A program made the translations under genes and the position numbers. A model generated the notes under the pieces. It ran no database searches. It was not told the DNA's origin and was given only the letters and a program-made list of their open reading frames with translations. Shown here in pieces: positions 25,487 through 51,050 of a DNA stretch of 64,000 bases. Positions within the stretch are counted from its first letter, which is position 1. The number at the start of each line of letters is the position of its first letter. The stretch comes from Escherichia coli phage AZ21: sequence record LC788708.1, one strand, 5' to 3'.

Positions 25487-25499
25487 GATAAAAAAGTAG

Positions 25500-25528: not shown

Positions 25529-25563
25529 ATATACATAAATTAGTTAAGAGAGGTATATATATT

Positions 25564-25992
25564 ATGTCTGATCGTTTCTATACTCAAATGGCGGAACATT
25601 TTCGTATACCACATTACGAGCTAAACATTGCACTCCGTGATCATGACTCTCCTGAGTACAAAAAGCTCGAAAAGAAAGCGGAAAAATCTATTGATACAAA
25701 GGTAGGTGCATCTATGTCTAAGGGCAAAAAGTTAACTCGTCTTGATCTTAATAAAATTTTAACTGAACTTTTGGGTACTGATATTGAAGGTGCTAAATTA
25801 CCGCTTCTTGTACTAGAGACTATGATTAAAAAGGTCAAAAATAAAGAATATAAGAAGGTAGAAGTCCCGGAAGGCAGATTAAAAGCTCCTTATCAGGAAG
25901 CATTAACCGAGTGTTTGGGTGTAAATCTTGATCTGAGCACCGCAACCGTAAAAACTATGAAAAACTTCTTAGAGGCCATTAATAAATTGTGA
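25564..25992 (+). CDS. hypothetical protein
   Basis: ORF with AGAGAGG RBS. Confidence 0.45.
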   Translation: MSDRFYTQMAEHFRIPHYELNIALRDHDSPEYKKLEKKAEKSIDTKVGASMSKGKKLTRLDLNKILTELLGTDIEGAKLPLLVLETMIKKVKNKEYKKVEVPEGRLKAPYQEALTECLGVNLDLSTATVKTMKNFLEAINKL

Positions 25993-26495
25993 TTACTAGG
26001 GAAAGATTATTAGAGGTACTAGAGTATCACGAAGATGGTACTCTAACCTGGAAACCTAGACCAGAAGGTACAAGAGGTTGGAATACCAGCCTTAACAATA
26101 TGCCTGCTGGGTCTATTAATGCTGATGGCTATCTAATGCTCTCTATTGATAGAGAACGAATACTTGCGCATAGGGCAATCTTCTTTATGCACAAAGGCTA
26201 TTTACCTGATATAGTAGATCATGATGATACCAATACTCTAGATAATCGTATTGGTAACTTAAGAGAAGCTACAAAAGCTCAAAATGCTTTTAATAGGAAA
26301 TCGGCTAATAAAAATAACCTATTGGGATTAAAAAATATATCTCAAAGAGGGAAGTCTTTTAGAGTAAAAATCTCTAGGGCAGGAATCAATTATATGAAAA
26401 CGTGCAGTTCTTTGGAAGAAGCAATTGCATGGAGAGATGAAAAACTAGAAGAACTCCACGGTGAGTTTGCCAGCAAAGGAAATAAAAATGTCTAA
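25989..26495 (+). CDS. HNH homing-endonuclease-like protein
   Basis: HRAIFFMHKGYLPDIVDHDDTNTLDNRIGNLREATKAQN motif (HNH_3 type). Confidence 0.7.
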   Translation: MITRERLLEVLEYHEDGTLTWKPRPEGTRGWNTSLNNMPAGSINADGYLMLSIDRERILAHRAIFFMHKGYLPDIVDHDDTNTLDNRIGNLREATKAQNAFNRKSANKNNLLGLKNISQRGKSFRVKISRAGINYMKTCSSLEEAIAWRDEKLEELHGEFASKGNKNV

Positions 26496-26778
26496 ATTAG
26501 TCTATCTATTAAAAGGTTCCACCTGTAACCCGTGTAAACTTTTCGAGCCAGTATTTGATAAAGTAGTCAGTGACTATAATTTGGAAATCCATAAAGAGAC
26601 TGATAATACAGAATTAATGCAGAAATTTGGTGTGCGCCAAGTTCCTGTAGTAGTTCTGGCGGATCGCTTACCTAATGGTCGAGTAGAAGCTAATCATATT
26701 CTGATTGGACGTCAGCTTCGTAAAGAAACTATGCACGAAGCTATTAAAAATTTCCTGGATGATAATCCAGAGGACTAA
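26461..26778 (+). CDS. thioredoxin/glutaredoxin-like protein
   Basis: CNPC active-site CxxC in a thioredoxin-fold context. Confidence 0.55.
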   Translation: MSLPAKEIKMSKLVYLLKGSTCNPCKLFEPVFDKVVSDYNLEIHKETDNTELMQKFGVRQVPVVVLADRLPNGRVEANHILIGRQLRKETMHEAIKNFLDDNPED

Positions 26779-26783
26779 TAAAC

Positions 26784-26816
26784 AAAGCCTGATTTTAGCT
26801 GATCAGGCTTTTATTT
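26784..26816 (+). terminator. rho-independent terminator
   Basis: AAGCCTGAT..ATCAGGCTT then TTTATTTT. Confidence 0.75.
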
Positions 26817-26819
26817 TAC

Positions 26820-26848
26820 TTGCTTTTTGCTAAAAATTTTGGTATAAT
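26820..26848 (+). promoter_or_regulatory. T5-type early promoter
   Basis: TTGCTT-17-TATAAT. Confidence 0.65.
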
Positions 26849-26875
26849 ACTTATATAAATTGATTGGAGGATTAA

Positions 26876-27121
26876 ATGTTAGCGGAACAAGCAAAACGTT
26901 TAGCTAGAATAAATAGAGCTGCACTCCTTAAGAGCAAGAAGAAAACGTATAAGTATGTTAAAAAGAGAATAGTTTCTTCTGTAGGGATTGGAAGTTCTTT
27001 TGTACAGTTTAATCGTGATGAAATTAGTTATGAAGTTATAAAAGCCCTCTATAAAGAGGGTTATACTCTCCAACTATCTAATGATTATGGCACAACTATT
27101 TTAACTGTTATTTGGGAATAA
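26876..27121 (+). CDS. small basic protein
   Basis: ORF with GGAGG RBS. Confidence 0.45.
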   Translation: MLAEQAKRLARINRAALLKSKKKTYKYVKKRIVSSVGIGSSFVQFNRDEISYEVIKALYKEGYTLQLSNDYGTTILTVIWE

Positions 27122-27123
27122 TT

Positions 27124-27987
27124 ATGAAAAAAGAATTTAATGTACATAAAACTCTAGTAGTGCCTGATGATGCCAACTTGTTTTTCGTTGGTGATATTCA
27201 TGGATGCAATGATTTGCTAGAAGATGCGTTGAAGTTAGCTGGGTATAATAGCAAAAAAGATTGCGTAGTATGTGTCGGAGACTTAATAGACCGAGGCACA
27301 CAAAACCTACAAGTTTTAGCCAAATTCCTGTATAATCCACGTTTTATCAGTGTACGTGGTAATCATGACCAATTTATGATTGTAGGAGATTGGGCTAATT
27401 GGATGTATAATGGTGGTATGTGGGCTATGAATGAACTAGATGCAGACACCATTAAAAATATTGCCGAAGATATGGCTGAAAAAATGCCAGTATTCCTAAC
27501 TGTTAGACATCGTGGTAAGAAGTTTGGTGTTGTTCATGGTGGTGTACCTTTTACGTACAAAGAATGTGGTAATGAAGTAGAAACCCCAGTATGGGATAAT
27601 CTTATTGCACAAATAGAAGCAGCTAAGGAAAACCCACATGACCATCCTGAATACCATATTGAACCATATTTATGGGATCGAGATGTAATCCAAGAAATAG
27701 GCTTCTACTTGTCCAAAAATGGTGAGGAACACCCGTATTTCCAGCGTTATGCAGGATTTAAAGAAAAATACATGGTAGAAGTGCCAGAAGTTAAAGGTGT
27801 AGATTTCGTGTTTCACGGACATACTGGAGTTCCTTACCCACTTCTTTATAAGAACCGTGTTTATCTTGATACTGGCGGTGTTTTCAACGGGCAGTTGACG
27901 GTTGCGCAAGTTAACGATGAAACTGGCAAAATCACCACATTTACCACAGATAAAAATAATAGCTGCGGTGTACAGAGGATTCTTTAA
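27124..27987 (+). CDS. Ser/Thr protein phosphatase (calcineurin-like, lambda-PPase type)
   Basis: GDIHG...GDLIDRG...GNHD metallophosphatase motifs. Confidence 0.8.
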   Translation: MKKEFNVHKTLVVPDDANLFFVGDIHGCNDLLEDALKLAGYNSKKDCVVCVGDLIDRGTQNLQVLAKFLYNPRFISVRGNHDQFMIVGDWANWMYNGGMWAMNELDADTIKNIAEDMAEKMPVFLTVRHRGKKFGVVHGGVPFTYKECGNEVETPVWDNLIAQIEAAKENPHDHPEYHIEPYLWDRDVIQEIGFYLSKNGEEHPYFQRYAGFKEKYMVEVPEVKGVDFVFHGHTGVPYPLLYKNRVYLDTGGVFNGQLTVAQVNDETGKITTFTTDKNNSCGVQRIL

Positions 27988-28508
27988 TGAAAGTTCGCTT
28001 TTGGAGTGATCTCCACTTGGGGCATGCAAATATTACTAAATTCAGACCAATCTTCTCTACTATGGAAGAGCATGATGAATTTATTATGGATACTATTACA
28101 TCTATGAAAGATAAGCGTACAGTATTCTATATTTTAGGAGACGCATTTGTATCTAGAAATGGTTTGGAGAAGTTCGAAAAACTCTTTGGCAATGTTAGAA
28201 CTACGTTAGTTTTGGGAAACCACGACTTAGAACGAGAAGGATTATCTTTCAAAGACTTAATAGGGGTTGTAGATAATGTACAATCACTAGTTAAATATAA
28301 AAACTTCTGGCTTTCCCATGCTCCAGTGCACCCTGGGGAGCTGAGGGGTAAAAAGAACCTACATGGACATACTCACTTTGAGTTAATGGGAGACCCTCGT
28401 TATATTAACGTTTGTATCGAGTATGCAAAATCTCCAGTACGCCTGGAAGACATCATGAGTGGTAAGTACACTTCACATGATAAAACTAGCTGGATGTTAA
28501 ATGTCTGA
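27987..28508 (+). CDS. second calcineurin-like metallophosphoesterase
   Basis: DLHLGH...GDAF...GNHD...GHTH motifs. Confidence 0.7.
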   Translation: MKVRFWSDLHLGHANITKFRPIFSTMEEHDEFIMDTITSMKDKRTVFYILGDAFVSRNGLEKFEKLFGNVRTTLVLGNHDLEREGLSFKDLIGVVDNVQSLVKYKNFWLSHAPVHPGELRGKKNLHGHTHFELMGDPRYINVCIEYAKSPVRLEDIMSGKYTSHDKTSWMLNV

Positions 28509-28616
28509 GTATATAGCTGAGGGTATTATTAAACGAATCATACAAGCGATAGCAATACTTATAATCATTTGTATTGCTATTGGTGCGGGATTAGGCATTT
28601 TAATTAAAAGTTTTAT

Positions 28617-28645
28617 TTGCTAAAATGCTTAAGTTTCTGTATAAT
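28617..28645 (+). promoter_or_regulatory. T5-type early promoter
   Basis: TTGCTA-17-TATAAT. Confidence 0.65.
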
Positions 28646-28675
28646 TACTTTATAAATTGATGAGAAGGAATCAAA

Positions 28676-29104
28676 ATGAACAAAGTTGATAAAGCTCTAG
28701 TTTTCGCAGCAGCAGATAAGTTTGAACAAGTTAAGGCAACTTTCCGAACCTTGTTCCAGTCTTACGTTCAAGATAAGTCTAATCCTATCTCTGAACGTTT
28801 GATGGTCTGGGAATGCTACGCAACTGATGCCCTATTAATGGCATATTACAGGGGTGAGGCAGACGAAGAGATCGAAGAACTTTTTACTGAAGATACTCCA
28901 CGTTATCAGGCAGTTTATTTCCAAGACCTAGCTGAGCGCATCATTCCTGATGATCTTTGGAATAAATACTACGGTGATCCTGAAGATGAAGGAATGACTC
29001 CAGAAGCCTGTATTGAGCTGATCTGCAAAGATCATCCTGAAATTGCAGAGAAATTTGAAAAAGTTTTTGCTTCTGAGTTCTCCGGCGTTGTTAACGATTG
29101 GTAA
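28676..29104 (+). CDS. hypothetical acidic protein
   Basis: ORF with GAGAAGGAATC RBS. Confidence 0.5.
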   Translation: MNKVDKALVFAAADKFEQVKATFRTLFQSYVQDKSNPISERLMVWECYATDALLMAYYRGEADEEIEELFTEDTPRYQAVYFQDLAERIIPDDLWNKYYGDPEDEGMTPEACIELICKDHPEIAEKFEKVFASEFSGVVNDW

Positions 29105-29121
29105 GTAATTAAAAAATTCAG

Positions 29122-29150
29122 TTGCTTTAAGCCTTAAAATTCTGTATAAT
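29122..29150 (+). promoter_or_regulatory. T5-type early promoter
   Basis: TTGCTT-17-TATAAT. Confidence 0.65.
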
Positions 29151-29182
29151 AAGTTCATAAATTAATGAGAGAGGAAATTCTA

Positions 29183-29461
29183 ATGAAAAACATGACTAAA
29201 GACTTCGACGCCTCTAACCTTACCAAGACTGAAATGGCCAATGTATTAGCAATTCTCCTCGACATGCAAGGATTTGAGGGGCAACTGATGAAAATGTCTA
29301 TTCCAGCGATGAAGAAGATGTACGATTCCCTTAACAAGAACGCTATGGCCTTTAACTTAGCAAAACAAGAGGCGCGCTTTGCTAAGGAGCATCAAGCAGT
29401 GGCAGAACGCCGAGCAGCTAGCTTTGAGCGTGAAGTTAAGCAACTGAAAGGTAAGAAATAA
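29183..29461 (+). CDS. hypothetical protein
   Basis: Internal ATG of the 29165 track ORF after GAGAGAGG RBS. Confidence 0.45.
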   Translation: MKNMTKDFDASNLTKTEMANVLAILLDMQGFEGQLMKMSIPAMKKMYDSLNKNAMAFNLAKQEARFAKEHQAVAERRAASFEREVKQLKGKK

Positions 29462-29483
29462 GGACTAAGGGAGTATATAATTA

Positions 29484-29765
29484 ATGTTAATTGAAATTCT
29501 CATTGGATTGCTAGTGCTTATGACACTAGCAGCGATTGGTGGGGTTATTGGTATTGTAAGCATACGAAAAAACATGGAGAGTATGCTTATTACTAATAGT
29601 GGACTTCACTGCCGCTTAATAGAACAAGAACAAGATATTGAACTAGCACAAAGACGCTCGGATATTCTAAAAGAAAAATTAAACAATATTGAAGCAATAG
29701 CTGGGAATACAAAACTACCTAATAAAGTAATGCGTGCTCAGATAATTACGGAGATTAAAAAATGA
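29484..29765 (+). CDS. small membrane protein
   Basis: N-terminal TM. Confidence 0.45.
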   Translation: MLIEILIGLLVLMTLAAIGGVIGIVSIRKNMESMLITNSGLHCRLIEQEQDIELAQRRSDILKEKLNNIEAIAGNTKLPNKVMRAQIITEIKK

Positions 29766-30007
29766 TGATGTTTATTCTAGCGTTTTATCTAATTGTGGTT
29801 GGTGTACTGGTTACTAAATATCACACATGGACGCCAAAGAATGTTGTTAAGGTAGCCTTATTTGTTATTCCAGTTCCACTTATTATCTTTTCTATGTTAC
29901 TAGTGATGTTAGTTGGTAAAGTAACAAAAACCGATATTAAACGAATTGCGGATGAATTGCAACAGTCTTGTGATATGGTAGAGGATATTCTTAAAGATGA
30001 AGCTTAA
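29762..30007 (+). CDS. small membrane protein
   Basis: Two TM helices. Confidence 0.45.
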   Translation: MMMFILAFYLIVVGVLVTKYHTWTPKNVVKVALFVIPVPLIIFSMLLVMLVGKVTKTDIKRIADELQQSCDMVEDILKDEA

Positions 30008-30323
30008 TTTTAATGAATTAAATACCTTACATGAGATATTACAGTTTGTGAATAACAATATTAGTATTCCGGACGATACACTAGAAGTTCTCAGGATAAT
30101 TGAGAAAAAGGTAGGAATTGAAATTGAGGACTCTTGGAAACCACTTTCTGTATTAACACCACTTAATATGAAAGTGATAGTTAAAAATATCAATACTGGT
30201 GAAGAGTGTGAAATGATTCGTAAAGAACTAGCTGATAGCTATTCACCAAAGTCTGTAGTAATGTACCATGATGATACTGCTAAGACTCTACAGACAGCTA
30301 ATTACGTATGGCGTCTCCCATGA
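29997..30323 (+). CDS. hypothetical protein
   Basis: ORF. Confidence 0.45.
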   Translation: MKLNFNELNTLHEILQFVNNNISIPDDTLEVLRIIEKKVGIEIEDSWKPLSVLTPLNMKVIVKNINTGEECEMIRKELADSYSPKSVVMYHDDTAKTLQTANYVWRLP

Positions 30324-30422
30324 TTGATTTAGTACCAATTACTGCTGGGCTAATAGCACTATTAGTGCTTGCAGTTTTTATTATTGTGGAGCAGGCCAAA
30401 GTAATAAGGAGACTTAAAAACA

Positions 30423-30623
30423 ATGATAAAACGTCTTGTTTATCAGGCACCAAAGATTGTAACTGAGTATTTTGTATTACTGCCTCAGATTGTATTTCTA
30501 ACAGCATTATTTAATATACTTTTTCGGCATCTAGGAATAACGGAAAATATCTTCTACACTTCTGAACTACTTCCTTTTATGTACGAAGGCATCATCGTGG
30601 CAATTAACGGAGTTCGTAAATGA
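30423..30623 (+). CDS. small membrane protein
   Basis: TAAGGAGA RBS; antisense 30298-30507 ORF rejected. Confidence 0.45.
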   Translation: MIKRLVYQAPKIVTEYFVLLPQIVFLTALFNILFRHLGITENIFYTSELLPFMYEGIIVAINGVRK

Positions 30624-31081
30624 CAGCACTACAACAACTACAGAATTACTGGTTTGATAACCAATTTAACGATCTCTTCATCCAGTTGTTTGTCGAAACG
30701 AACGGACGCTTCAACTACCGATTCTTTAATAAGTTTCACGAAACAAAATTCTCGCATACAGAAATTAATGCAGCGATCCAAGACCTAACTGGTTCTAAAG
30801 TAATTCAGTATCGTGAAGTAGACTTTACACCAGATTGTTTTGGGTTTGAATTGTTTAAGAAAGCATATAAATTTGGTAAGTTTGAGGATGCTCGTCAATG
30901 GGTTCATGATTTCTGGTACAACACTGATATTGTTCCTAGTCGTGTGCTGATTCTTAACTGGATTGCTAAACAACATCCACCTAAAGCTCAATCGTCCTTC
31001 TTACCAACTGACACAGGAAACCTTTACCATGACAGAAAAGAAAAATCCATTGCTGGAGCAGATGAAGGAATGGGAGAGTAA
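30620..31081 (+). CDS. hypothetical protein
   Basis: ORF, coupled start. Confidence 0.45.
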   Translation: MTALQQLQNYWFDNQFNDLFIQLFVETNGRFNYRFFNKFHETKFSHTEINAAIQDLTGSKVIQYREVDFTPDCFGFELFKKAYKFGKFEDARQWVHDFWYNTDIVPSRVLILNWIAKQHPPKAQSSFLPTDTGNLYHDRKEKSIAGADEGMGE

Positions 31082-31400
31082 TATTGAATCTGGTCTGGTA
31101 GACGGAGAAGATATTGTTAACTCTATGCTAGAAGTAACAATAGATAATATAAATCCTATTTTGGCCAGTGAAACCTCAGATCTTATAGGACTTTCTAGTA
31201 CTTTCGATTCTTTGGCTAAATTAGCCTTAGATGACAAAGAGATAACCAAAGAAGATCTCGCCTCAGCTATGAATATGGCTATTAACGCTTACATTGGCAA
31301 ACGTACCGATGAACTCGACAAACAAATCAAAAAGCGTGATACAACACTAAATCTTATGGAAACGGCCACTATTTTAAGAAGTGGTAAACAACTTCATTAA
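31029..31400 (+). CDS. hypothetical protein
   Basis: Internal Met of the 30963 track ORF (MTEKKNPLL). Confidence 0.4.
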   Translation: MTEKKNPLLEQMKEWESNIESGLVDGEDIVNSMLEVTIDNINPILASETSDLIGLSSTFDSLAKLALDDKEITKEDLASAMNMAINAYIGKRTDELDKQIKKRDTTLNLMETATILRSGKQLH

Positions 31401-31433
31401 TTCTAGAGGCCGGGACTTGATTGTTCTGGCCTT

Positions 31434-31652
31434 TTGTGTTTCAAGGAATATAATATGAAAGCACTAGATAATTACTTAAAGGCTAAATATAGTCCTATAG
31501 AAGATCAATCTGCTGTAACTTGTGAAATAAGTCGAAATAATACAGTACGATTAGCTCAAAAAGGCGGAGGAACATCTGCTAATATTATTTGGCTATCCGA
31601 AGAACAAGCAAAAGACTTGTACCATAAACTAGACAAGTTATTTAATAAGTAG
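31434..31652 (+). CDS. small hypothetical protein
   Basis: ORF. Confidence 0.4.
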   Translation: MCFKEYNMKALDNYLKAKYSPIEDQSAVTCEISRNNTVRLAQKGGGTSANIIWLSEEQAKDLYHKLDKLFNK

Positions 31653-31653
31653 T

Positions 31654-32094
31654 ATGAGAGAAAAAGTAAATGAATTACTAATCGAGGAAGCTAACAACTT
31701 TCCAATAAATAGGTTTGTCAAATCTGATGGATCTATTAATAGAACTAAGATTAAGCAGCTACATCCCGACTTTCAACAAGAAGCACTAAACCTTATATTT
31801 ATCAAGAAAGCTGTTGCAGTTCATGGGGCTTTCTTTGGGTATGAGCGTGTAAATTACAAAACAATGCAACAGCAAGTCGAGATCTACTGTCCAGATCATG
31901 AAGGGTATTATTGGCAAACTGCTAGATCTCATTTAGAAGGGCATGGTTGTCGACTGTGTGCACACAAGGTTGTGCAGCGTGTCACGGATTATGGAACTTA
32001 TACCGTACCAGCATGTTATCATAAATTTGTAGTTGACGATAATCATATAGTTTGGTATAATAAGTTTTCAAAGTTAAGAATGGAGATAAAATAA
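31654..32094 (+). CDS. zinc-ribbon protein (CPDH...GCRLC)
   Basis: Same C..H..G.GC..C motif as N-terminus of the 49949 protein. Confidence 0.45.
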   Translation: MREKVNELLIEEANNFPINRFVKSDGSINRTKIKQLHPDFQQEALNLIFIKKAVAVHGAFFGYERVNYKTMQQQVEIYCPDHEGYYWQTARSHLEGHGCRLCAHKVVQRVTDYGTYTVPACYHKFVVDDNHIVWYNKFSKLRMEIK

Positions 32095-32279
32095 TGGAAA
32101 CTCTTTTTCTTTTAATGCTCGTAGGTTCTCTGTTACTAATACTAGCACTTCTACTAATCTGCAATATTCTTAACAACAAGAATCTAGAGCTAAAGTGTGA
32201 GAACCAAATCCTTAATCGTGAACTTAAACAATATAACATCGCAGCCCATAAACTGTTAGACAAACTGGAGAATAAATAA
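32094..32279 (+). CDS. small membrane protein
   Basis: Single TM. Confidence 0.4.
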   Translation: METLFLLMLVGSLLLILALLLICNILNNKNLELKCENQILNRELKQYNIAAHKLLDKLENK

Positions 32280-32884
32280 TGACTTTTAATACACAACAAT
32301 CTATTCAAGTAGTGCCAGATCATGAACTGAACACATGGGATTATAGCTTTAAAGATTTAACTGCTACTATACAATTTAAATCTATGAAGCTAACATTTGC
32401 ACACACTGATCTTAGAGCCTGTAAAGATCTTGAGGATAAGCTCGAAGATGCTCGTAAGATTTTTGGCAAGGCTCGCATCCCGGCTGATAATCTAATTAAC
32501 GCATTAATCGATGTAGGATACAAACTCGTGAAGACTGAGGTGAACCGCCCTAGTACTCCAGTGACTGTTAGAGATCCGTGGCAGCCAGGGACAATCTCAA
32601 TGCTAAATAAATCATCGGATATACACAATGTTCCATGCGGTGGTGTGGTAAGTAGTACGCAGTCATACAAGTTTGGTGAAGATTACGGCCCTTCTGTGCA
32701 GTTGAAACATACTCAAGAAGCTTTTGAATCTGATATGCGAAGCGTAGCACCTGTGGATGCTGGAGTTTCTAGGAGTTCTGTTTGTACTATTCATTTTAAT
32801 AATCCTAGTAAACATGGAAGTTTAGAGGATGCTATCCTTGAAGCGTTGGGAGCTGCTATTAATGAAGATAAAAGAGGTAGTTAA
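32279..32884 (+). CDS. hypothetical protein
   Basis: ORF. Confidence 0.45.
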   Translation: MTFNTQQSIQVVPDHELNTWDYSFKDLTATIQFKSMKLTFAHTDLRACKDLEDKLEDARKIFGKARIPADNLINALIDVGYKLVKTEVNRPSTPVTVRDPWQPGTISMLNKSSDIHNVPCGGVVSSTQSYKFGEDYGPSVQLKHTQEAFESDMRSVAPVDAGVSRSSVCTIHFNNPSKHGSLEDAILEALGAAINEDKRGS

Positions 32885-33774
32885 TGGGATTTTATAGTAA
32901 TAGAAAACCAAAAGGTGTAACTGGTAAATTCGCAGTTGAAGAAAGACCTTTTCCACCGGTCGATGTAGAGAAACTACGTGAACTTCTAGAAATGCTAGAA
33001 GGTTGCCATGAACGTTGTTATTCTGAACTCTCTTTAAATGAGAAACGTGTTGTTGAGATGTTCTGTATTCGTTCAGCTAGAACAGCTAAAGGTACTTCTC
33101 CAAAAGATGAAGTAAAAGAGTACAGAGTTCTAGTGATGCATGCTTGGGCACAACGTTTTGCAGTTCATTCGCTTCAGGAATGGTTTAATCTTCCAGCCTA
33201 TAAAGATTTTCATGTTTACGAAGATGAGGTTATGAATTATAATGAGTTGTATGGTTTGTCCTTCAAAAAGACAGGCTCACCGATGCATGATGCACTCAAT
33301 TCATTCCCTGATCATTACCTTCCAGTTCGTGAATATAGAGATCGTGAAGGAAATAAACCCTGCTTCACTATTTGGAATAAGTCTAAGACGATATCTGATC
33401 TAGATAATTATTGGTTTCGCACAAAAGAAGGATTCCTAGGAACAGAACCTTTACCTAAGGATCTCAAACCTATCCTTCCGCCTGCGAAACCTAAACATGA
33501 AGTAACGATTGCTATTAATAGAATAATTCTAGGAGCAGATGATCTTACTAAACAAATCGCCGCAGTTATCGCAGTTCTGTTTGACGGTACAAATTCTTCT
33601 GCACGTTATGAGAAGCTAACGGATAACAAATTGCAGATACCTAACGAGTTGTATGAGAGTTCGTGCAAGATCTATGATAACTTTAGTAAAGTAGATTACC
33701 CCGTGAGATCCATTAAAGAACTCATGGAGTATGCGGAGATGGGGATGAAAGGAAATCTCATGTTCGATGAATAA
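32884..33774 (+). CDS. hypothetical protein (last + strand ORF before repeat region)
   Basis: ORF. Confidence 0.5.
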   Translation: MGFYSNRKPKGVTGKFAVEERPFPPVDVEKLRELLEMLEGCHERCYSELSLNEKRVVEMFCIRSARTAKGTSPKDEVKEYRVLVMHAWAQRFAVHSLQEWFNLPAYKDFHVYEDEVMNYNELYGLSFKKTGSPMHDALNSFPDHYLPVREYRDREGNKPCFTIWNKSKTISDLDNYWFRTKEGFLGTEPLPKDLKPILPPAKPKHEVTIAINRIILGADDLTKQIAAVIAVLFDGTNSSARYEKLTDNKLQIPNELYESSCKIYDNFSKVDYPVRSIKELMEYAEMGMKGNLMFDE

Positions 33775-33781
33775 ACTCTAC

Positions 33782-33810
33782 TTGACGTTATGATTTCTGC
33801 ATGTTATAAT
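33782..33810 (+). promoter_or_regulatory. near-consensus sigma70 promoter TTGACG-17-TATAAT firing into non-coding repeat region
   Basis: No ORF for about 1.8 kb downstream. Confidence 0.55.
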
Positions 33811-34138
33811 AACTCTATGAAATAACATAGAATAAAGAGATCCACCCGGATACGGATGGTGGATGGGAAACTTCTATTTCCCCCGTAGCTTGTCGGAGGG
33901 CTAGGGAAATCTTAAGAAGTTTTGTACCATCTCACGCAATTCGTATCCCAGGGGTGGAGCATCTCTTCCAATCTTTGGGGATCTTATACTTAAATTAAAG
34001 GTAAAACTTTTGGTCACATAATTTACATTCAAGATGATACACTGGTTGCCGCCATTCTTCCTAGGATGGCACAACACTTTCTTCTAGACTCCTAAGTTTC
34101 TAGGAATACTAACTCTAGAGTTTACACTAAACTTTGAA

Positions 34139-34876
34139 TCGGATTCGCACATGCTCTAGGGCAGTTTTTCATCTACTATAAATATCCTAGGCCGGTTTTC
34201 CTATACAGGGCGGTTATGGGGAGGGCGGTTATTTCTAGACAATAAAATTTACTCTTGTCAGTCCAGAAATTACTGTCGGATTTGCACATTGTGTTTCTAG
34301 AAATTTATGGTCGGATTTGCACAATTGCCTAAGTTTTTAGGAACATATAATCTCCTGAAAATGGCAGCATTATTTCGGGCCGAAGGCCCATGATTGCCTG
34401 AGTTTTTTTAGAGACACAGAAATTTTCACTTGTCAAGCTATTTTGCCCCATTTTGCTAATAAAATTTTACTTTATCTCCCCTAATCTCAAATTAACCCAA
34501 ATCTTCTCAACTCTTCTCCAAAATCCCCGCAAATCAGGTGCTCCGCACCAAACATGCGCCCCTCCCGTAGTTCCCCCAAGTTTCTCTCGATCTCTCAACT
34601 TCTCCCCAAACTCATACAATCACACACCCTCCAATCGAAGTCACAAAAATCTTGTCGGATTCGCACAAATAAACCCATGTCGGATTTGCACATATTCTAG
34701 TTAATTCCACAGGATTGATGCGCAGCATCGGATTGCTGGAGTTTTTGGGAGAATTCATTGTCGGATTCGCACACTATAAAAATTTTTCGGGTCGGATTTG
34801 CACACTACCAAAAATTGTCGGATTCGCACATACACGCCCACGCGTAATCCATGGGGGCAAATGTCGGATTTGCACA
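34139..34876 (+). repeat. nine dispersed copies of 15-bp motif TGTCGGATT(T/C)GCACA
   Basis: Copies at 34139, 34274, 34309, 34653, 34678, 34759, 34789, 34816, 34862, all same orientation. Confidence 0.8.
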
Positions 34877-34903
34877 AAAGCGCAGGGCAATTGCCCTGCT
34901 TGC

Positions 34904-35078
34904 CTGAATGCGAATGATAATGAGAATCATTTGCATTTAAAAAGCGGAATGAGAATGATAATAATTCGCATTTAAGAATGGAAGTGAGAATTATTCAGGA
35001 AGTGAAACGATTCTCATTTAAAAAGTGAAACGATTCTCATTTAGAAAGTGAAACGCGAATGATAATGATTCGTATTTA
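34904..35078. promoter_or_regulatory. array of Fur-box-like AT-rich palindromes (GAATGATAATGAGAATCATT family)
   Basis: At least five overlapping units, incl. tandem AAGTGAAACGATTCTCATTTA x2; related copies at 35413, 35805, 39463. Confidence 0.5.
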
Positions 35079-35290
35079 AGAATGGAAGTGAGAAACACTA
35101 TTATTTAAGTTATCCACAGACTTATCAACAGCACGATTTGACTTGACAGAATCCTAGCCATTTTGAGGCGTTATCAACAGACTTATCAACAGCTTATCCT
35201 ACTGTATAAATATACAGTATTCCTATGCAGTGAATAATTCTAATATACAGCTAAAACGCTCTCAAACGCATTCTAACGCGTTTAATTTTG
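35076..35290. repeat. left arm of about 215-bp imperfect inverted repeat (contains DnaA boxes TTATCCACA / TTATCAACA)
   Basis: Hand alignment with reverse complement of 39121-39336 (shared AAGTGAGAARCACTATYATTTAAGTTATCCACA, CAGACTTATC, ACTGTATAAATATACAG, AAACGCATTCTAACG). Confidence 0.75.
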
Positions 35291-35585
35291 GTGGGGATAC
35301 TAAAACAAGGGCAAAATTGGAGGAGGCTTGAAAATTAGTTAGCTCGCTAATGATCACACACGGCGACACGTAACACCCTAACCATTAGCAGGCTAACCAT
35401 CGCGGGCGTGGTCAAATGAGAATGATTCTCATTTGTGGATTGGGGGCGCTTCCTGATAGTTGCGCCCCGTGATTATTATAGTAGGGGGCAACCGTTACGC
35501 TTTGCCCACTCCCGCCACTCATCTTGGTGCCTAGACTTGCGACGGCGTACTAAAAACCGCTTGTACCAGTGATTAAACCATCGTT

Positions 35586-35789
35586 TCATAAATCCTCCTC
35601 CGGTAGTCGATGCGTGATCTTTTCCTCCTCCCCATAGGAATCCACCAAATACTGATAATAACCATCGTGATCATAAATCACTTTATCATATTCCCCACGC
35701 TCGACCGCTTGCCGATTTTCCAACGTATCAGGCACAAAGAAAGTATCAACGGTAACAGTAGTTTTAGTTACAACAATTTTATCACTCAT
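35586..35789 (-). CDS. small acidic protein
   Basis: Fur-like palindrome overlaps its upstream region. Confidence 0.45.
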   Translation of the reverse strand: MSDKIVVTKTTVTVDTFFVPDTLENRQAVERGEYDKVIYDHDGYYQYLVDSYGEEEKITHRLPEEDL

Positions 35790-35915
35790 AATGCCATCGC
35801 CCCTAGAATGAGAATGATTATCAATATCATTGTGAAGCCATTACCAAATCGTAAACGCTGGGAATGTTTCCCAGCGGTATTATTAGACTTATGGCTTTGT
35901 GTTTTTCGCCACCAG

Positions 35916-36116
35916 CTATTCACGGTAGACGCTCCATCCGTCTAGCTTCCATTCTTCCCCCTTGCGAATATTGAAAAACCAATCATTAAAATTGTAACCA
36001 TCTTCTGACATGATCACGCCGTTTTCTTTCATGTACAAAAATTCATCACTAGTAAAATATTGATTACTAACTTTAAAACCTTGTTTCATTTTTTCTAGTG
36101 CTTCATCTTTAGTCAT
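35916..36116 (-). CDS. small hypothetical protein
   Basis: Start overlaps upstream stop (ATGA). Confidence 0.45.
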   Translation of the reverse strand: MTKDEALEKMKQGFKVSNQYFTSDEFLYMKENGVIMSEDGYNFNDWFFNIRKGEEWKLDGWSVYRE

Positions 36117-36457
36117 TGCGCCACCTTTCGAAACGCTGTTTCAATACTATCCGCAGTGGATTGAATATATGCGCCTTTGAGTATCAGCCGCTCGGTGCAT
36201 ATCTTGCGAAAAATATTAATAAAATCGTCCTCATTTTCTGCGATTAATGCCTCACCCATAACCTGAACGTCGCAAGATGCAAAGGTCAAAAATTGAAACG
36301 CTAGTTCACGGGCAACGACCGCATTGATTTTATAATGCGCCTTGCCTTCATAGATATTAATAACGCCCTTATAAGCTGGCGAAAGCTGATTTAAGTAGTT
36401 TGCTAATAATGCCGGACGGCAATTAGCAACAAAACGATTGCCCTCATAAATAACCAT
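36113..36457 (-). CDS. hypothetical protein
   Basis: GGGAG RBS. Confidence 0.5.
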   Translation of the reverse strand: MVIYEGNRFVANCRPALLANYLNQLSPAYKGVINIYEGKAHYKINAVVARELAFQFLTFASCDVQVMGEALIAENEDDFINIFRKICTERLILKGAYIQSTADSIETAFRKVAQ

Positions 36458-36584
36458 TTGATAGTCTCCCGATTAGATAGCCAGATAATAACATAAAGAT
36501 CCCCAATAAAAGAGGATCATTCTTAAATAAGGTGGCGGTAAAACCGCCAACCATTGCAAGGAGAATAACAATAATGCTTTTCAT
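36446..36584 (-). CDS. small membrane protein (about 46 aa, below track cutoff)
   Basis: Hydrophobic MKSIIVILLAMVGGFTATLF; stop overlaps next start. Confidence 0.3.
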
Positions 36585-36793
36585 AGTACCCCACGAAACG
36601 CAGCGTAAAAGGTGGCAAAGTGTTTAACTGTTTCAGCAATCACGTTGCCGCGCTTATCAAATTTCTTTTCTGTAACACGAAAGGCATTTTTATTACGTGC
36701 TACATATTCGATTTTACAATCTTCCCGCTCGAACGTGTTAACATCCACCAGCTTAAAGCCTTTCGAACGTGCAAGAGAAACGTTGCGGATCAT
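36581..36793 (-). CDS. small hypothetical protein
   Basis: AAAGGGGA RBS. Confidence 0.45.
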   Translation of the reverse strand: MIRNVSLARSKGFKLVDVNTFEREDCKIEYVARNKNAFRVTEKKFDKRGNVIAETVKHFATFYAAFRGVL

Positions 36794-36795
36794 TT

Positions 36796-36978
36796 TTATT
36801 CCCCTTTACTAGTCATGCAGCCCAGCAGATAAGAAAATACAGCGATGCCAGCACCAATAGTAACCATTGGTTTTATATTTACTAAACCGCAATAGGAATC
36901 CTGAATACCATAAGCGGTGGCGAAAAGAGTCAAAATAGCGCCCAAGATACCCGCTAAAATAGCTCGAAAAATAACCAT
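36796..36978 (-). CDS. small membrane protein
   Basis: Two TM helices; GAGGAG RBS. Confidence 0.45.
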   Translation of the reverse strand: MVIFRAILAGILGAILTLFATAYGIQDSYCGLVNIKPMVTIGAGIAVFSYLLGCMTSKGE

Positions 36979-37027
36979 TTGTAATACTCCTCTAGTTAGT
37001 GGGGCGAAAGTAACGCCCCGTTATTAA

Positions 37028-37258
37028 TTACATTAAAATAATTTTTGCCGCTTGTTTTTTGGTACAGTGTTCCGCTTTCAGGGTGTCCAGCAAAAAGCCC
37101 GCCGTTTGCTGATCGATTTTATCGGCATTATATAGTTCTTGGATGGTGTTATAAGTTTTAGCAATGCCGTATTCTTGTACCATTTCTTGAATAATCCAGC
37201 GATTTGATACCCAGCCTTTACCAGTGAAAAGAGCGTCAGAAGAAGAGTAAGCAACCAT
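37028..37258 (-). CDS. hypothetical protein
   Basis: Start moved to the Met with GGAGG RBS (MVAYSSS...). Confidence 0.45.
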   Translation of the reverse strand: MVAYSSSDALFTGKGWVSNRWIIQEMVQEYGIAKTYNTIQELYNADKIDQQTAGFLLDTLKAEHCTKKQAAKIILM

Positions 37259-37364
37259 TTTAAGCCTCCAAATTTTTGGGAAAATTTTCAACCGTCCTCA
37301 AACGGTGTAAAGGCATTATAACAAAAAAGGCCGCCATAAAAGGCGACCTTTACAAAACTTTACA

Positions 37365-46210: not shown

Positions 46211-47968
46211 ATGGGTTTTTTCGCTGGTAAGTATAGCGATGGTAAGACCGTACTATCTTTAAATACTGAATCTGGTGGTGACATTAATCGTCACTATAGT
46301 CCAAATGCCAATAGTATTTTTCATAGTGATATGCCATTTGTCCTAGTTGATGGTACTTATGAGTCTGGGTTAGGTGATGCCGGTAATGGGTTTTTTGTAT
46401 GTCAGATGCCCTCTGACATAATAAATATTAAATCTAACGATCCTGGTAGAGTTATACTAACTGCTATTGAAATTAATGGTACTCACAGAGCTTTTCTTAA
46501 CGGTACTCAGAGTAAAGTAGGTCAAACTATAGCTGCCACTCAAGCAGATCCTTTTAGATCTTTTGCTAGTGTTTCCCAGACTAGTGGATTTGCATTTGGT
46601 AATAGCCTGGCATCTGGTACATATAACTATAATCCATCTATAGGGCATGAAGAATCTATTTCTAGAAATGGTACTGGTGGAACCACCCTACATAGTACGT
46701 ATCATGGTATAGTTAGGCCAGGTGCAGGAGCTCCAGTAGGGGTTACTGTTGCAGAAGCTTTTGCACAGTTGGGTTTTCCTACTAATAGTAGTACAGTACC
46801 TATAGATGGTAATAATCAATATTACTGGGACCCAGGATGGATGTCTCCTTTAGGATCAGCACACAGAGGGCACGATTGGTTTTATGTTTGTAACTCTAAC
46901 ATACGTGGGTATGGTGGGGTAAGACAAGGTCTTCCTGGTAGTGTAAATACTATGTATCATGATGGTGGCAACAGATTTGTTTGTAGGGGTTCTACAACTA
47001 ATTTAGCTAATCAATCTAGTGATTCTACAATACTACAAGATTGGTATAACATAACTCCTACTAAGGTTATTTGGTACGTCTTGAATTTAAGATATTCTGG
47101 CGGCAATATGAGTATCTCTGGTAATCCTTTTACTGGTTCAGATATTCTTATATCTCCTTCTAATTTCATAATTAAAGGGGTTAGTCTTCCCAATACTGGA
47201 TACAAGTTTATTAACCAGAACGCTTTCGGTAACTTAGGTTATAGACCAGATATGGAATATATTGGAAATAATGCAGCGTACACTGGGGCCTTCGGAGATA
47301 CTACTGCAAGGTGTGAACTTGTAGGTTCTAGTAATGGGGGTTTATGGTCTCCTGTGGACTATGGAGGGGCTAAGTCTCAAATTAGTATTTACAAATTCGG
47401 AGCTGGTAAGCAATGGTACGTAAACTCTAATGATAATACTATCGGTAATGAACACGGGGTTGTTTGGGGGCCTTCAGCAGTTCCACTACGACTTTTTAGC
47501 GGAAATGTTGGTAGTTCTTACATGGGGGATGATATTACTCCCAGCTATCCAGGAACTGGAGATAGATACGTTGGTTTATCAACTATTGGGCTAGGTATAC
47601 CGGGTGGCAATGCTACCGTAATTCTTACCACTGAAGTTATATCAGGTAATCTTAACTGCGCGGGTGTTCCCGCTAATACATGGAATAACGGTGTATTTCA
47701 GGTTCAAGGAAGAAGAGCATATAGTTATAGTAATGGGGATGCAATATTTCATCAGATTTTAACATTACCAGTAGGGTATTTAGTACCTTTTCATACTACA
47801 TCTGCTTTTAGATACACACCTAACAATGCCCTAAGTAGAAATAGTTTTATATACACTGCTAAAAATCTGGGGAATGGAAATGTAGAGCTAGGGGTAGTTA
47901 TGCACGTAAGTTTAGGTAGTGCAGTTTTCCTACCTAGATTAAGAGTAACAGTTCAACGCCTAACCTAA
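46211..47968 (+). CDS. receptor-binding tail tip protein (pb5/Oad-like, 585 aa)
   Basis: Position next to llp; Gly/Ser/Asn-rich beta protein; N-terminus MGFFAGK..SGGD resembles T5-group RBPs. Confidence 0.55.
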
Positions 47969-47978
47969 AGGAGGATAT

Positions 47979-48461
47979 ATGGCAAATGATGTATTAGTTC
48001 CCGATCTCATGTCTCCCGAAGGCATGGATGTTATTGAAGCCTATTTACAGTGCGGTAGTGATGTTCCTGCCGCCGCTCGTAGTCTTGGAATGTCCGAGAT
48101 TGCATTTCGTGATATAATGAATCGTGGGGAAGTTAAAAACTATCTCAACGATATCTTTATGGAAAGCGGCTTCCGTAATCGTGACCGCTTATTCGGAGTT
48201 CTTGATGAAGTTATCAAACGCAAGTTGGAAGAACTCGAAGAAACTGGCATGGGTTCTGACCAGGATATCATGGATATTCTCTGGAAGGCGCACAAGATGA
48301 AGATGGAAGAAATGAAAATGATGGTAGAACTGGAGAAAGTGAAGGCAGCAGCCCGTACTCCGGCTAACCAGACTAATATTCAGAATAATATTATTGCTGG
48401 AAGTGGTGACGAAAACTATATGAATCTTATTACCGCTCTAGCAGGAGGAGGTAAGAGATAA
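47979..48461 (+). CDS. terS: terminase small subunit
   Basis: HTH-like N-terminus, directly upstream of and coupled to terL. Confidence 0.55.
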
Positions 48462-49777
48462 TGAAAGTCTCTAGAGATTATATTAACACCACAGATGTTA
48501 TTGACTTTGGTATTGACAAACGATTTTTTCGTCTGCCAGTCTCTAGCATTCTAGCTCAAGAGGGGATTACACCTAACGCCCCTCAGGTTGCAATTATTAA
48601 TGCGTTAGAAGATCCTAGACACCGTTTCGTAACTGCGTGTGTATCACGTCGTGTAGGTAAGTCATTCATCGCATATACACTTGGGTTCCTAAAACTTCTG
48701 GAACCCAATGTGAAGGTGCTGGTAGTTGCACCTAACTACTCACTGGCTAACATAGGTTGGTCACAGATTCGTGGTCTTATTAAGAAGTATGGATTACAGA
48801 CTGAACGTGAGAACGCAAAAGATAAAGAGATTGAACTAGCGAATGGTTCTCTCTTTAAGCTGGCTTCTGCGGCGCAGGCTGACTCCGCGGTTGGTCGTTC
48901 ATATGACTTCATCATTTTTGACGAAGCAGCGATTTCCGACGTTGGTGGTGCAGCTTTCGATATTCAGTTACGTCCTACTCTAGATAAGCCAAACTCTAAA
49001 GCTCTGTTTATTTCCACACCTCGTGGTGGTAACTGGTTTAAAGAGTTCTATGAGAAAGGATTTAACGAAACTCTACCTAACTGGGTATCTATTCATGGTA
49101 CATATCGTGATAACCCACGTGCTGATCTGAACGATATCGAAGAAGCGCGTCGTACTGTTAGTAAAAACTACTTCCGTCAAGAATATGAGGCTGACTTCTC
49201 TGTATTCGAAGGTCAGATCTTTGACACCTTCAATGCTATCGAACATGTTAAAGACCTCAAAGGTATGCGCCACTTCTTTAAAGATGATGAGGCTTTCGAA
49301 ACATTACTTGGTATCGACGTTGGTTATCGTGACCCTACAGCAGTTCTTACTATCAAGTATCACTATGATACTGATGTTTATTACGTACTGGAAGAATATC
49401 AGCAAGCTGAAAAGACTACAGCTCAACACGCTGCTTATATCCAACACTGCATAGATCGTTATAATGTTGATCGTATATTTGTAGACTCCGCCGCTGCTCA
49501 GTTCCGTCAGGACTTAGCATATGAACATGAAATCGCTTCTGCTCCTGCTAAGAAATCTGTCCTAGATGGTCTGGCATGCCTACAAGCACTGTTCCAGCAA
49601 GGTAAGATCATCGTAGATGCTTCATGTACCTCATTGATCCACGCCCTAGCGAACTACAGGTGGGACTTCCAGGAGGGCGAAGAGAAATTATCACGTGAAA
49701 AACCACGTCATGATGCGAACTCTCACCTTTGTGACGCACTGCGTTATGGAATTTACTCAATTTCCCGTGGGAAATAA
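48461..49777 (+). CDS. terL: terminase large subunit (438 aa)
   Basis: Walker A VSRRVGKS, Walker B IIFDEAA, C-terminal nuclease Asp residues. Confidence 0.85.
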   Translation: MKVSRDYINTTDVIDFGIDKRFFRLPVSSILAQEGITPNAPQVAIINALEDPRHRFVTACVSRRVGKSFIAYTLGFLKLLEPNVKVLVVAPNYSLANIGWSQIRGLIKKYGLQTERENAKDKEIELANGSLFKLASAAQADSAVGRSYDFIIFDEAAISDVGGAAFDIQLRPTLDKPNSKALFISTPRGGNWFKEFYEKGFNETLPNWVSIHGTYRDNPRADLNDIEEARRTVSKNYFRQEYEADFSVFEGQIFDTFNAIEHVKDLKGMRHFFKDDEAFETLLGIDVGYRDPTAVLTIKYHYDTDVYYVLEEYQQAEKTTAQHAAYIQHCIDRYNVDRIFVDSAAAQFRQDLAYEHEIASAPAKKSVLDGLACLQALFQQGKIIVDASCTSLIHALANYRWDFQEGEEKLSREKPRHDANSHLCDALRYGIYSISRGK

Positions 49778-49787
49778 ATAAGTATAG

Positions 49788-49826
49788 GATGGGATACTAC
49801 TCAGTTGGTATCCCATTCCTGCATTT
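49788..49826 (+). terminator. hairpin GGATGGGATAC..GTATCCCATTCC
   Basis: 11-bp stem then TGCATTTT. Confidence 0.5.
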
Positions 49827-49948
49827 TAAAATCCCCTTTACAAATTCGACATGATTATGTATACTATATTCATTGATCGGGAGAACTTCTCCCCTAATAG
49901 AACGTAAACAAGAAAAATTAGTGCTCTATACGGAGTGTAGGAGATTCT

Positions 49949-50623
49949 ATGGGTCGACAAAAGCTAACAATAAAAGATATAAATACTAGATTAGCTGATC
50001 GTGGAATCCAAATTGTCGGTGAATATGTAAACCAACGTACAAAAACAGTATTTAAGTGCCAAAGAGCACACGTTTGGGAAGCAACGCCACATTCTATACT
50101 CCATATTAAGAGGGGTTGCCCACACTGCGCACCTAATACTATATTGCTAGATGAAGTTAATAACAGGATATCCAGTATAGGGTATACACTGTTAAATAAC
50201 TATACTAATGCAAAAACAAAACTACATCTACGCTGTAATAATGGTCATGAATGCGATATTACCTTAGATGGGTTGACGCAAGGTAGAAGATGTCCTTATT
50301 GCTCCCTTAAATGGGATAATGGTGGATTTCTCTATATCATGTCCTCTTCTAGGGGTACTAAAGTAGGTATAGGTTTATACCCCGAGAAGCGATTGAACGA
50401 GGTTAAAAGAGAGTCTGGATTTTCAGATCTATACTTATTTACCACGTATCACTTACCTGATAGAGAAACTGCTCTAGATTTAGAAAAAGAAGTCCATAGA
50501 GAATATTATAATAAAAACTGTGGGTTTTCAAAATTTACAGGAAGCACAGAATTTTTTAATGTTGCTCCAGAGGATATAGTAGTCTTTCTAAGTAACTTTG
50601 GATTGGAGGAATATGGCCACTAA
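49949..50623 (+). CDS. duplicated zinc-ribbon plus GIY-YIG-like (T5orf172-type) nuclease-domain protein
   Basis: Two C..H...GC(P)xC repeats; C-terminal GFLYIM..TKVGIG..R..E GIY-YIG-like core. Confidence 0.55.
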   Translation: MGRQKLTIKDINTRLADRGIQIVGEYVNQRTKTVFKCQRAHVWEATPHSILHIKRGCPHCAPNTILLDEVNNRISSIGYTLLNNYTNAKTKLHLRCNNGHECDITLDGLTQGRRCPYCSLKWDNGGFLYIMSSSRGTKVGIGLYPEKRLNEVKRESGFSDLYLFTTYHLPDRETALDLEKEVHREYYNKNCGFSKFTGSTEFFNVAPEDIVVFLSNFGLEEYGH

Positions 50624-51050
50624 TACTAAGTACAAACGTGATGCCATTTCCATAATGAGGGATGGTATAAAATCTAGGTATAGTAAGGATGGTTGCTGTG
50701 CTATATGCGGTAGTGATGAAGCCCTAGAACTTCATCACTATCATACTATATCTCAACTAATTAAAAATTTTGCTAAAGAACTCCAGCTGGATTTCACTGA
50801 TGAGAATATCGTCCTTTCAAATAGGGAAGCATTCTATAAGAAATATGAGCATGAATTAGTTAGAGACGTAGTAACATTATGCCAGCATCATCACCAATTA
50901 TTACATAAGGTTTACACAAAAGAACCTCCTTTATTTTCTGCTAATAAGCAAAAAGTGTGGGTTCAAAAGCAGAAAGACAAATTACAGAATCCTCAAGAAA
51001 AGACACAAGTCAAGACTGAAACAAAATCAGGATTCGCAAGGTTCTTATAA
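50598..51050 (+). CDS. HNH endonuclease
   Basis: CAICGS..LELHHYH..HHQLLHKV HNH motif. Confidence 0.65.
   Translation: MDWRNMATNTKYKRDAISIMRDGIKSRYSKDGCCAICGSDEALELHHYHTISQLIKNFAKELQLDFTDENIVLSNREAFYKKYEHELVRDVVTLCQHHHQLLHKVYTKEPPLFSANKQKVWVQKQKDKLQNPQEKTQVKTETKSGFARFL

Follow-up and report, generated by a model that had tools for sequence, protein, structure and literature searches.

The window analysed here is a stretch of 64,000 nucleotides (nt) from Escherichia coli phage AZ21 (sequence record LC788708.1), which matches E. coli phage AZ23 (LC788707.1), a T5-like phage of the Demerecviridae, at 100% identity; for many T5-like phages of Salmonella and Escherichia the identity is 92–97%. A first reading made from the letters alone (the sequence-only reading) had described three homing-endonuclease-like genes in it, two of them as insertions between the terminase large subunit gene, terL, and the portal gene. 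We refer to them in genome order as gene 1, gene 2 and gene 3. All three open reading frames (ORFs) exist where they had been placed, and their products are of nuclease type. Free-standing homing endonuclease genes (HEGs) are selfish nuclease genes that sit between host genes and not in introns. We consider it about 80% probable that the three genes form two classes, genes 1 and 2 being free-standing HEGs and gene 3 being sciA, the gene for the T5 nicking endonuclease SciA. The earlier description stands for genes 1 and 2, which come and go at a fixed site among close relatives, and falls for gene 3, which is conserved.

The region of gene 2 and sciA was sampled at 31 loci, in addition to phage database records, and the slot of gene 1 was surveyed in 23 IMG/VR relatives. 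Pfam matches of genes 1 and 2 were judged against the curated cut-offs. Among the window ORFs phmmer found no further paralogues of the three proteins, and an NCBIfam search with the three gave no useful match. The features of the two regions are as follows.

25564..25992, + strand: conserved upstream gene of unknown function, phrog_4328 (PHROG, empty-site alignment)
25989..26495, + strand: gene 1, probable free-standing HNH_3-type HEG, 168 amino acids (aa) (Pfam, PHROG, patchy distribution, slot occupancy)
26488..26778, + strand: thioredoxin-like gene (trx) 3′ of gene 1, most likely starting at ATG 26488
48461..49777, + strand: terL (Terminase_6N/6C), an Epseptimavirus-type allele (Pfam, PHROG)
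49787..49818, + strand: terminator-like hairpin 3′ of terL, 13 pairs followed by a T-run, conserved in HEG-less genomes
49837..49865, + strand: promoter-like element TTTACA-17-TATACT, conserved in all relatives and a putative promoter in the T5 st0 record
49874..50612, + strand: inserted segment of 739 nt, a 75-nt leader plus HEG coding sequence (alignment of occupied and empty junctions)
49949..50623, + strand: gene 2, probable free-standing T5orf172 HEG (GIY-YIG superfamily), 224 aa (domains, fold, patchy distribution)
50613..51050, + strand: gene 3, sciA, conserved nicking endonuclease and core gene, 145 aa (homology to crystallised T5 SciA, synteny)
50613..50905, + strand: divergent 5′ two-thirds of sciA, linked to the HEG (windowed identities; breakpoint at ~50900–50920)
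51050..52267, + strand: portal protein gene (Pfam, PHROG)

The nicking endonuclease gene between terL and the portal gene

Homology identifies gene 3 as SciA, a resident core gene and not a mobile one. Its product is 95–97% identical to crystallised T5 SciA (T5.153 / T5p149; PDB 9QGV, 9QGX; PF26848), from which it differs by few conservative substitutions; the phmmer alignment (1e-92) covers residues 1–145, and the fold agrees closely with that of the crystallised enzyme. Because that alignment reaches residue 1 and the starts of HEG-less orthologues agree, we place the sciA start at ATG 50613 (MATNTKYKRD...), 15 nt 3′ of the TTG at 50598; of the HNH gene that had been drawn at 50598–51050, the ORF holds and the start does not. 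In the library copy of Pfam that was searched gene 3 had no significant match, while phrog_3497 (unknown function) was a strong hit and an HNH PHROG a weak one. A protein search returned 61 homologues, all in PF26848. Few of these carry source names; most of the names belong to T5-like phages, Vibrio phages among them, and a UniRef entry bears the name ‘Nicking endonuclease’. PF26848 was seen in T5-like phage contexts only. The catalytic H42 and the CxxC...CxxHH metal ligands are conserved: C29, C32, H41, H42, C90, H93, H94 and H98 are invariant or nearly so in 31 homologues and all are present here, H42 being the residue mutated in both crystal constructs (9QGV, 9QGX). By analogy SciA would be a His-Me/HNH-like nickase that makes the site-specific single-strand interruptions of T5 virion DNA at GCGC-containing sites, an assignment taken from the PDB entries and their titles and from annotation in relatives. 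GCGC itself is not depleted in the window (97 observed vs 91 expected).

A DNA search with gene 3 gave 530 phage records, essentially all T5-like and including Klebsiella, Providencia, Proteus and Erwinia phages. Identity declines with phylogenetic distance, and several records name the gene ‘nicking endonuclease’ or ‘SciA’. The order terL, sciA, portal is kept in 31/31 sampled loci. Because gene 3 lies between terL and the portal gene in every relative, with divergence that follows lineage, it is not an insertion; the same place and lineage-tracking divergence in all relatives is the very outcome that the sequence-only reading had itself named as speaking against homing. Its remark that terL usually adjoins portal directly does not hold for the T5-like family, where sciA always lies between them.

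Two other observations concern the nicking genes. At locus L030 (3001–3397; IMGVR_UViG_2974606035, Salmonella phage SP3-like) sciA appears broken, with residues 1–52 intact, then a frameshift or deletion, and only residues 64–145 aligned afterwards; this may be a natural nick-less phage or a sequencing error. In the T5 st0 record AY692264 (L056 1–14) the gene upstream of terL, T5p152, is labelled ‘probable sciB protein, involved in formation of single-chain interruptions’, which conflicts with other records and PHROGs, where it is the terminase small subunit.

Gene 1, gene 2 and their insertion sites

The assignment of gene 1 to the HNH_3 type was confirmed. The Pfam match (HNH_3, PF13392; E 3.4e-13) scores 49.4 bits over a curated cut-off of 24.8 and spans profile positions 2–45 of 46, and phrog_99, ‘HNH endonuclease’, is matched at 8e-52. 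The full-length gene is found in 16 phage records only, from Escherichia as well as Salmonella phages, at a nucleotide identity of at least 94.6% (94.6–100%). Its slot, the junction of the phrog_4328 gene and trx, is empty in 17/23 of the relatives surveyed, T5 included; the same gene is present in 1/23, and three other HNH_3 lineages, with 31–36% aa identity to gene 1, occupy the remaining 5/23. In phage TrudiRoth the slot is held by another HNH gene, labelled ‘putative homing endonuclease’, with 37% identity to gene 1. The slot is a hot spot, the same junction carrying at least three other HNH lineages elsewhere.

Relative to empty sites the net insertion is 500 bp. At empty sites the stop of the upstream gene overlaps the trx start (ATGAGTAA), and the junction contains ...ATTAATAACTATGAGTAAATTAGTA.... 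The insert alters the last codons of the phrog_4328 gene, which ends in ...NKL before the stop codon in the window vs ...NNYE at empty sites. The GTG start of gene 1 overlaps this upstream stop (GTGA) and its own stop falls just past trx ATG 26488; the gene is translationally coupled on both sides. The trx start is most likely this ATG (MSKLVYLLKGSTCNPC...), rather than GTG 26461, with which the longest ORF (26461–26778) opens, because orthologous genes start there in empty-site genomes. Both flanks are 96–100% identical to empty-site relatives; only over the initial ~75 nt of trx, where the CxxC motif is encoded, does identity fall to 84–88%. The trx 5′ haplotypes follow gene 1 occupancy only in part.

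Gene 1 resembles the free-standing HNH HEGs of T5-like phages (F-TflI/II/IV, T5 hegA-G; HNH_3 enzymes of the I-HmuI type) in its HNH_3 module and size, in its sporadic distribution and in its insertion between genes. It shares a short 3′ patch with T5 hegF / F-TflVI (78–83% over 69 nt). It differs from the T5 genes in lying upstream of a thioredoxin gene and not in the tRNA cluster, and it is less than 45% identical to other HNH genes. A sequence search of solved structures with genes 1 and 2 found nothing significant, I-HmuI (1U3E) reaching only E 0.38 against gene 1.

Some further observations touch this part of the genome. In Salmonella phage vB_Sen_I1 (MT233524.1 78262–81201) the homologue of window 25000–27500 is ~440 bp longer; it holds the same HNH gene as gene 1 (98.6%) and a further small insertion nearby. 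The tRNA region of the window (12768–17250) is strongly reduced, with 6 tRNA genes only, and between 16943 and 17249 about 7.8 kb is missing relative to TrudiRoth, which there carries ~20 tRNAs and three putative homing endonuclease genes. Of the HEGs annotated in TrudiRoth, the window has a match at gene 1 only.

Gene 2 had been described as a duplicated zinc ribbon joined to a T5orf172-type domain, and its matches bear this out: DUF4379 (29–62), CapR (78–119) and T5orf172/MUG113 (126–211) are all above cut-off. The nuclease domain has the GIY-YIG fold with nuclease motifs that appear intact, and the CxxC/H ligands of the zinc ribbons are invariant. The protein is 90% identical to T5 T5.154 / T5p150 (‘YomD-like’, ‘endonuclease’) and 99% identical to the homologues in SB9 and TrudiRoth; TrudiRoth and IrisVonRoten use the label ‘putative homing endonuclease’. 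Homologues in T5 and the BASEL phages share with gene 2 the slot, the two CapR-like zinc ribbons with a T5orf172 domain, and the proximity to the terminase. Repeated CapR-like zinc fingers with T5orf172 are typical of the T5orf172-class HEGs of ICP1 and other phages, which often lie beside the terminase and at exchange boundaries (PMC10448857). In the literature we found no mapped cleavage site for any member of the T5 lineage to which gene 2 belongs. The T5 orthologue was considered as the namesake of the Pfam ‘ORF172’ label, and this was dropped, the three T5 records calling it T5.154, T5p150 or ‘YomD’ (between ORF144 and ORF142).

In compact HEG-less genomes the terL stop is followed by the hairpin, the promoter-like element, an 18-nt ribosome-binding site (RBS) spacer and then the sciA start. 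Gene 2 and its leader replace that spacer (ACAGTTGAGGAGAAYACT), 739 nt for 18 nt, and the distance from terL to sciA is 839 nt in the window vs 118 nt in compact HEG-less genomes such as Sepoy. Only this one insertion lies between terL and the portal gene, and not two. The hairpin at 49788 and the AT-rich leader, which had been noted as preceding the genes, do not mark the insert: the hairpin and the promoter-like element are near-unchanged in HEG-less relatives. Because they are common to HEG-less genomes, the hairpin and the promoter-like element, and with them the AT-rich stretch that had been pointed out, belong to terL and the late operon and not to the insert. The hairpin at 49787–49818 reads as the terL terminator, and the element at 49837–49865 probably drives the HEG, sciA and the portal gene. 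The RNA of the HEG leader (49866–49965) folds no better than shuffled sequences (z = -0.63). At the other end the last 11 nt of gene 2 overlap the sciA start, the HEG stop being at 50621–50623 and the sciA ATG at 50613, and the 3′ end of gene 2 supplies an RBS for sciA (GGAGGA) in place of the original one. Base composition over 47.5–53 kb shows a mild GC dip that reaches into the portal gene and is not diagnostic of foreign DNA.

Of ~530 T5-like records that carry sciA, gene 2 occurs in 86, T5 included. An endonuclease gene between terL and the nicking endonuclease gene has also been recorded as variable, Erwinia phage Key being without it (PMC10194208). The site was found in four states.

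Intact HEG: 73 records
Decayed HEG: 13 records (Gostya9, DT57C, DT571/2, smaug and others)
Leader only, with an unrelated filler of ~115 nt (HildyBeyeler type): ~12 records
Compact empty site: the majority of records (not directly counted)

Intact copies are under purifying selection, the ratio of non-synonymous to synonymous substitution per site (dN/dS) being 0.08–0.19 at dS 0.15–0.64. In alignments, the decayed copies of Gostya9, DT571/2 and locus L029 keep the first zinc ribbon, contain stops and have lost the whole nuclease domain; ACG has also replaced the ATG start in Gostya9 and DT571/2. The remnants keep the last ~55 nt of gene 2, which serve sciA translation. Because 13 records carry decayed copies that lack the nuclease domain, gene 2 is dispensable. 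In the HildyBeyeler-type spacer (L002 1800–2059 and ~11 similar records) the first ~53 nt of the HEG leader are kept and are followed by non-coding filler. By tblastn, the AZ23 record LC788707.1 has a second place matching the gene 2 protein, outside the window, and in other T5-like genomes as many as 5 are reported, paralogues at different loci having ~36% identity.

The presence/absence comparison that the sequence-only reading had proposed gives, for both gene 1 and gene 2, clean presence and absence at a fixed site.

Linkage of gene 2 to a divergent 5′ tract of sciA

Over its first ~290 nt, sciA divides into at least four deeply separated allele classes. Measured in 60-nt windows, this tract of AZ21 is mostly 92–100% identical to HEG-bearing genomes (88% in one) vs 68–85% to the 19 HEG-less loci. 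Over sciA nt 1–291 the comparison with HEG-less alleles gives dS of 1.7–2.8, that is synonymous saturation, with dN/dS ~0.1, while over nt 292–435 dS is 0 against the HEG-less locus L013, to which the last third of sciA is 97–100% identical. The portal gene is 97–100% identical to HEG-less (L013) and HEG-bearing relatives alike. Most HEG-bearing and all remnant-bearing sampled genomes carry one ‘T5-type’ sciA 5′ allele, which was found in 0/19 HEG-less sampled loci. When the 3′ end of the HEG together with the 5′ end of sciA was used as a junction query, 86 records were returned with the same breakdown by organism as for the HEG query; the HEG 3′ end was contiguous in 73/86, and only its final 55 nt were present in 13/86.

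The window is a mosaic around this region. Its terL is 95–100% identical to that of locus L027 except in one 60-nt window (85%), and 70–95% identical to that of T5; the HEG and the sciA 5′ region are of T5 type; from ~50920 onward the sequence matches L013, L012 and L006 (97–100%). The gene 2 cassette adjoins an Epseptimavirus-type terL here, unlike in T5 with its T5-type terL. This pattern places breakpoints on both sides of a HEG cassette of ~1 kb, and with recombination breakpoints flanking the cassette the proposed use of these genes as markers of gene flow holds. Breakpoints that flank HEGs are a pattern reported for phage HEGs (PMC10448857).

A second clade repeats the arrangement. Klebsiella phage Sugarland (L055 2355–3653), of a different genus, has this slot filled by a T5orf172 gene of 53% identity that overlaps sciA in the same way. 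Eight records show this, and most other Klebsiella T5-like phages have sciA only. Between Sugarland and the HEG-less vB_KpnS_FZ41 (L060) identity is 93–100% through terS, terL, spacer and portal, but only 60–71% over the first ~180 nt of sciA, so that another clade, with another HEG lineage, again shows a local divergent tract beside the HEG. Beside gene 1, the divergent ~75 nt of trx suggest a weaker form of the same signature, with a putative target in the trx 5′ end.

The following sequence of events would account for these patterns. In a mixed infection the HEG nuclease would cut or nick its cognate site in a co-infecting HEG-less relative, repair would be templated by the HEG-bearing genome, and the HEG would be copied in with adjacent DNA co-converted; linked variants of sciA or trx would confer resistance to cutting. 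These steps are drawn from established HEG biology, namely that of the T-even Seg/Mob enzymes and the ICP1 T5orf172 HEGs. Gene 2 and the first ~290 nt of sciA travel together as one cassette. The site that its product recognises or cleaves would lie within the 5′ region of sciA in HEG-less phages or immediately before it, and the linked allele would be resistant. A site so placed is most likely what explains the cassette linkage, as far as the alignments suggest, and sciA would be the neighbour and possibly the target of gene 2. The free-standing HEGs of T-even phages cause localised marker exclusion, and those of T4 (Seg/Mob) serve us as the working analogy: an intergenic HEG, a target in an adjacent gene that is essential or conserved, co-conversion of flanking markers, and a resistant linked allele. 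The breakpoints and divergent tracts seen here fit this analogy. The T4 HEGs differ from gene 2 in nuclease family and DNA-binding domains.

In its full form this account holds that gene 2 targets the sciA 5′ coding region or RBS spacer of HEG-less phages, and that the HEG and a resistant sciA 5′ region make up a mobile cassette of ~1 kb that has repeatedly set recombination breakpoints where the packaging module meets the head module, across Tequintavirus, Epseptimavirus and, with the sister HEG lineage, Klebsiella Sugarlandvirus. We advance it tentatively, at somewhat short of even odds.

Several points weigh against the reading of genes 1 and 2 as homing genes and of gene 2 as part of a cassette. 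The linkage is not to one unique sciA allele, because SP01, vB_Sen_I1 and PNJ1902 carry the HEG with a HildyBeyeler-type sciA 5′ allele and ~12 HildyBeyeler-type genomes carry that same allele with the HEG leader only. Among the 60 of 86 records listed, every T5-type sciA allele comes with at least some remnant of the HEG, and because the records are phylogenetically non-independent, fewer independent events lie behind the 86/86 count than it suggests. A search for a motif kept in all HEG-less and altered in all HEG-linked sciA, across the Escherichia/Salmonella and Klebsiella clades, returned only the RBS spacer, which is replaced trivially; because no single motif distinguishes the alleles across both clades, the target of gene 2 was not located. 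Since a 53%-identical homologue holds the same slot in a different genus, the association of the HEG family with its site is old, and the patchy distribution of gene 2 could in part reflect repeated loss rather than recent gain. Both losses and transfers have shaped the distribution of the gene 2 family. Lastly, we infer the nuclease activity of genes 1 and 2, their current homing and the position of their targets.

Alternative readings and significance

The divergence of the sciA 5′ region might instead reflect functionally distinct SciA alleles, for instance in nick-site preference, that are kept by selection and on which the HEG hitch-hikes. The N-terminal 97 residues do differ between classes at 17–20% of non-synonymous sites (dN 0.17–0.20), the catalytic core lies in this tract, as would, judging from the DNA co-crystal, the DNA contacts, and the multiplicity of allele classes would also fit. 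However, a dN/dS of 0.07–0.15 gives no sign of positive selection, the catalytic and zinc ligands are all conserved, the start of the divergent tract coincides exactly with the point of HEG insertion, a separate clade with another HEG lineage shows the same tract, and a smaller similar tract borders gene 1. We regard selection on SciA function as unlikely. That gene 2 no longer homes and has become a domesticated accessory, whether as a CapR-like DNA-binding regulator, a packaging helper or a competitor-excluding nuclease, seems quite unlikely to us, although HEG-like nucleases near the terminase may be domesticated, a caution raised before (PMC10448857). Its strong purifying selection (dN/dS ~0.1), its place beside terL within the late operon, its translational overlap onto sciA and the long occupation of the same slot in another genus would suit such a role. 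Yet gene 2 is absent from ~84% of relatives with the same terL, sciA and portal, has decayed in 13 records with loss of the nuclease domain, and moves between terL backgrounds along with flanking DNA, and its GIY-YIG fold retains nuclease motifs that look intact.

For gene 3 a role in packaging could be imagined, as an HNH protein that aids terminase cutting in the manner of HK97 gp74, given that in every relative it keeps its place between terL and portal, and that terminase-adjacent HNH proteins are known packaging factors (discussed in PMC10448857). We hold this to be very unlikely: gene 3 is orthologous (95–97%) to a ‘SciA nicking endonuclease’ crystallised on GCGC DNA, and the broken sciA of locus L030, if real, would make the gene dispensable. 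Moreover, terL here is Terminase_6N/6C and not Terminase_1, with which the HK97-type dependence on an HNH protein is reportedly concerned (so Kala et al. in 2014). The remaining possibility, the null hypothesis of the sequence-only reading, is that all three genes are ancient fixed residents with no mobility. It describes gene 3 well, with 530 records, the same position and divergence that follows lineage. For genes 1 and 2 it is refuted by the presence/absence data, with cleanly empty sites between flanks 96–100% identical in close relatives, unrelated occupants in the slot of gene 1 and decay products of gene 2; for the three genes together it is hardly credible. The two-class reading, by comparison, draws on observed domain content, folds, insertion boundaries, presence and absence, alternative occupants, decay products, purifying selection, linkage and breakpoints.

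The finding is real but ordinary, because relatives and the literature already annotate or describe these genes to a large extent. The labels in relatives are ‘HNH endonuclease’, ‘putative homing endonuclease / GIY-YIG nuclease family protein’ and ‘nicking endonuclease / SciA’ respectively, and HEGs have been described as the chief source of differences between T5-like genomes (PMC10644984). The replicated complete linkage of the terL-proximal HEG with a hyper-divergent sciA 5′ region is the sole element that we did not find described in the literature. The result chiefly corrects annotation: in T5-like phages the HNH-like gene that separates terL from portal is SciA and not mobile DNA, and the two true HEGs are useful as markers of mosaic boundaries. 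The linkage also offers a concrete and cheap hypothesis for the cut site of an uncharacterised T5orf172 enzyme, and the hundreds of genomes in empty, occupied and decayed states are a well-sampled natural system for the life cycle of a free-standing HEG. If the cassette reading is true, the allelic diversity of the T5 nicking enzyme would be driven by a selfish element and not by SciA function.

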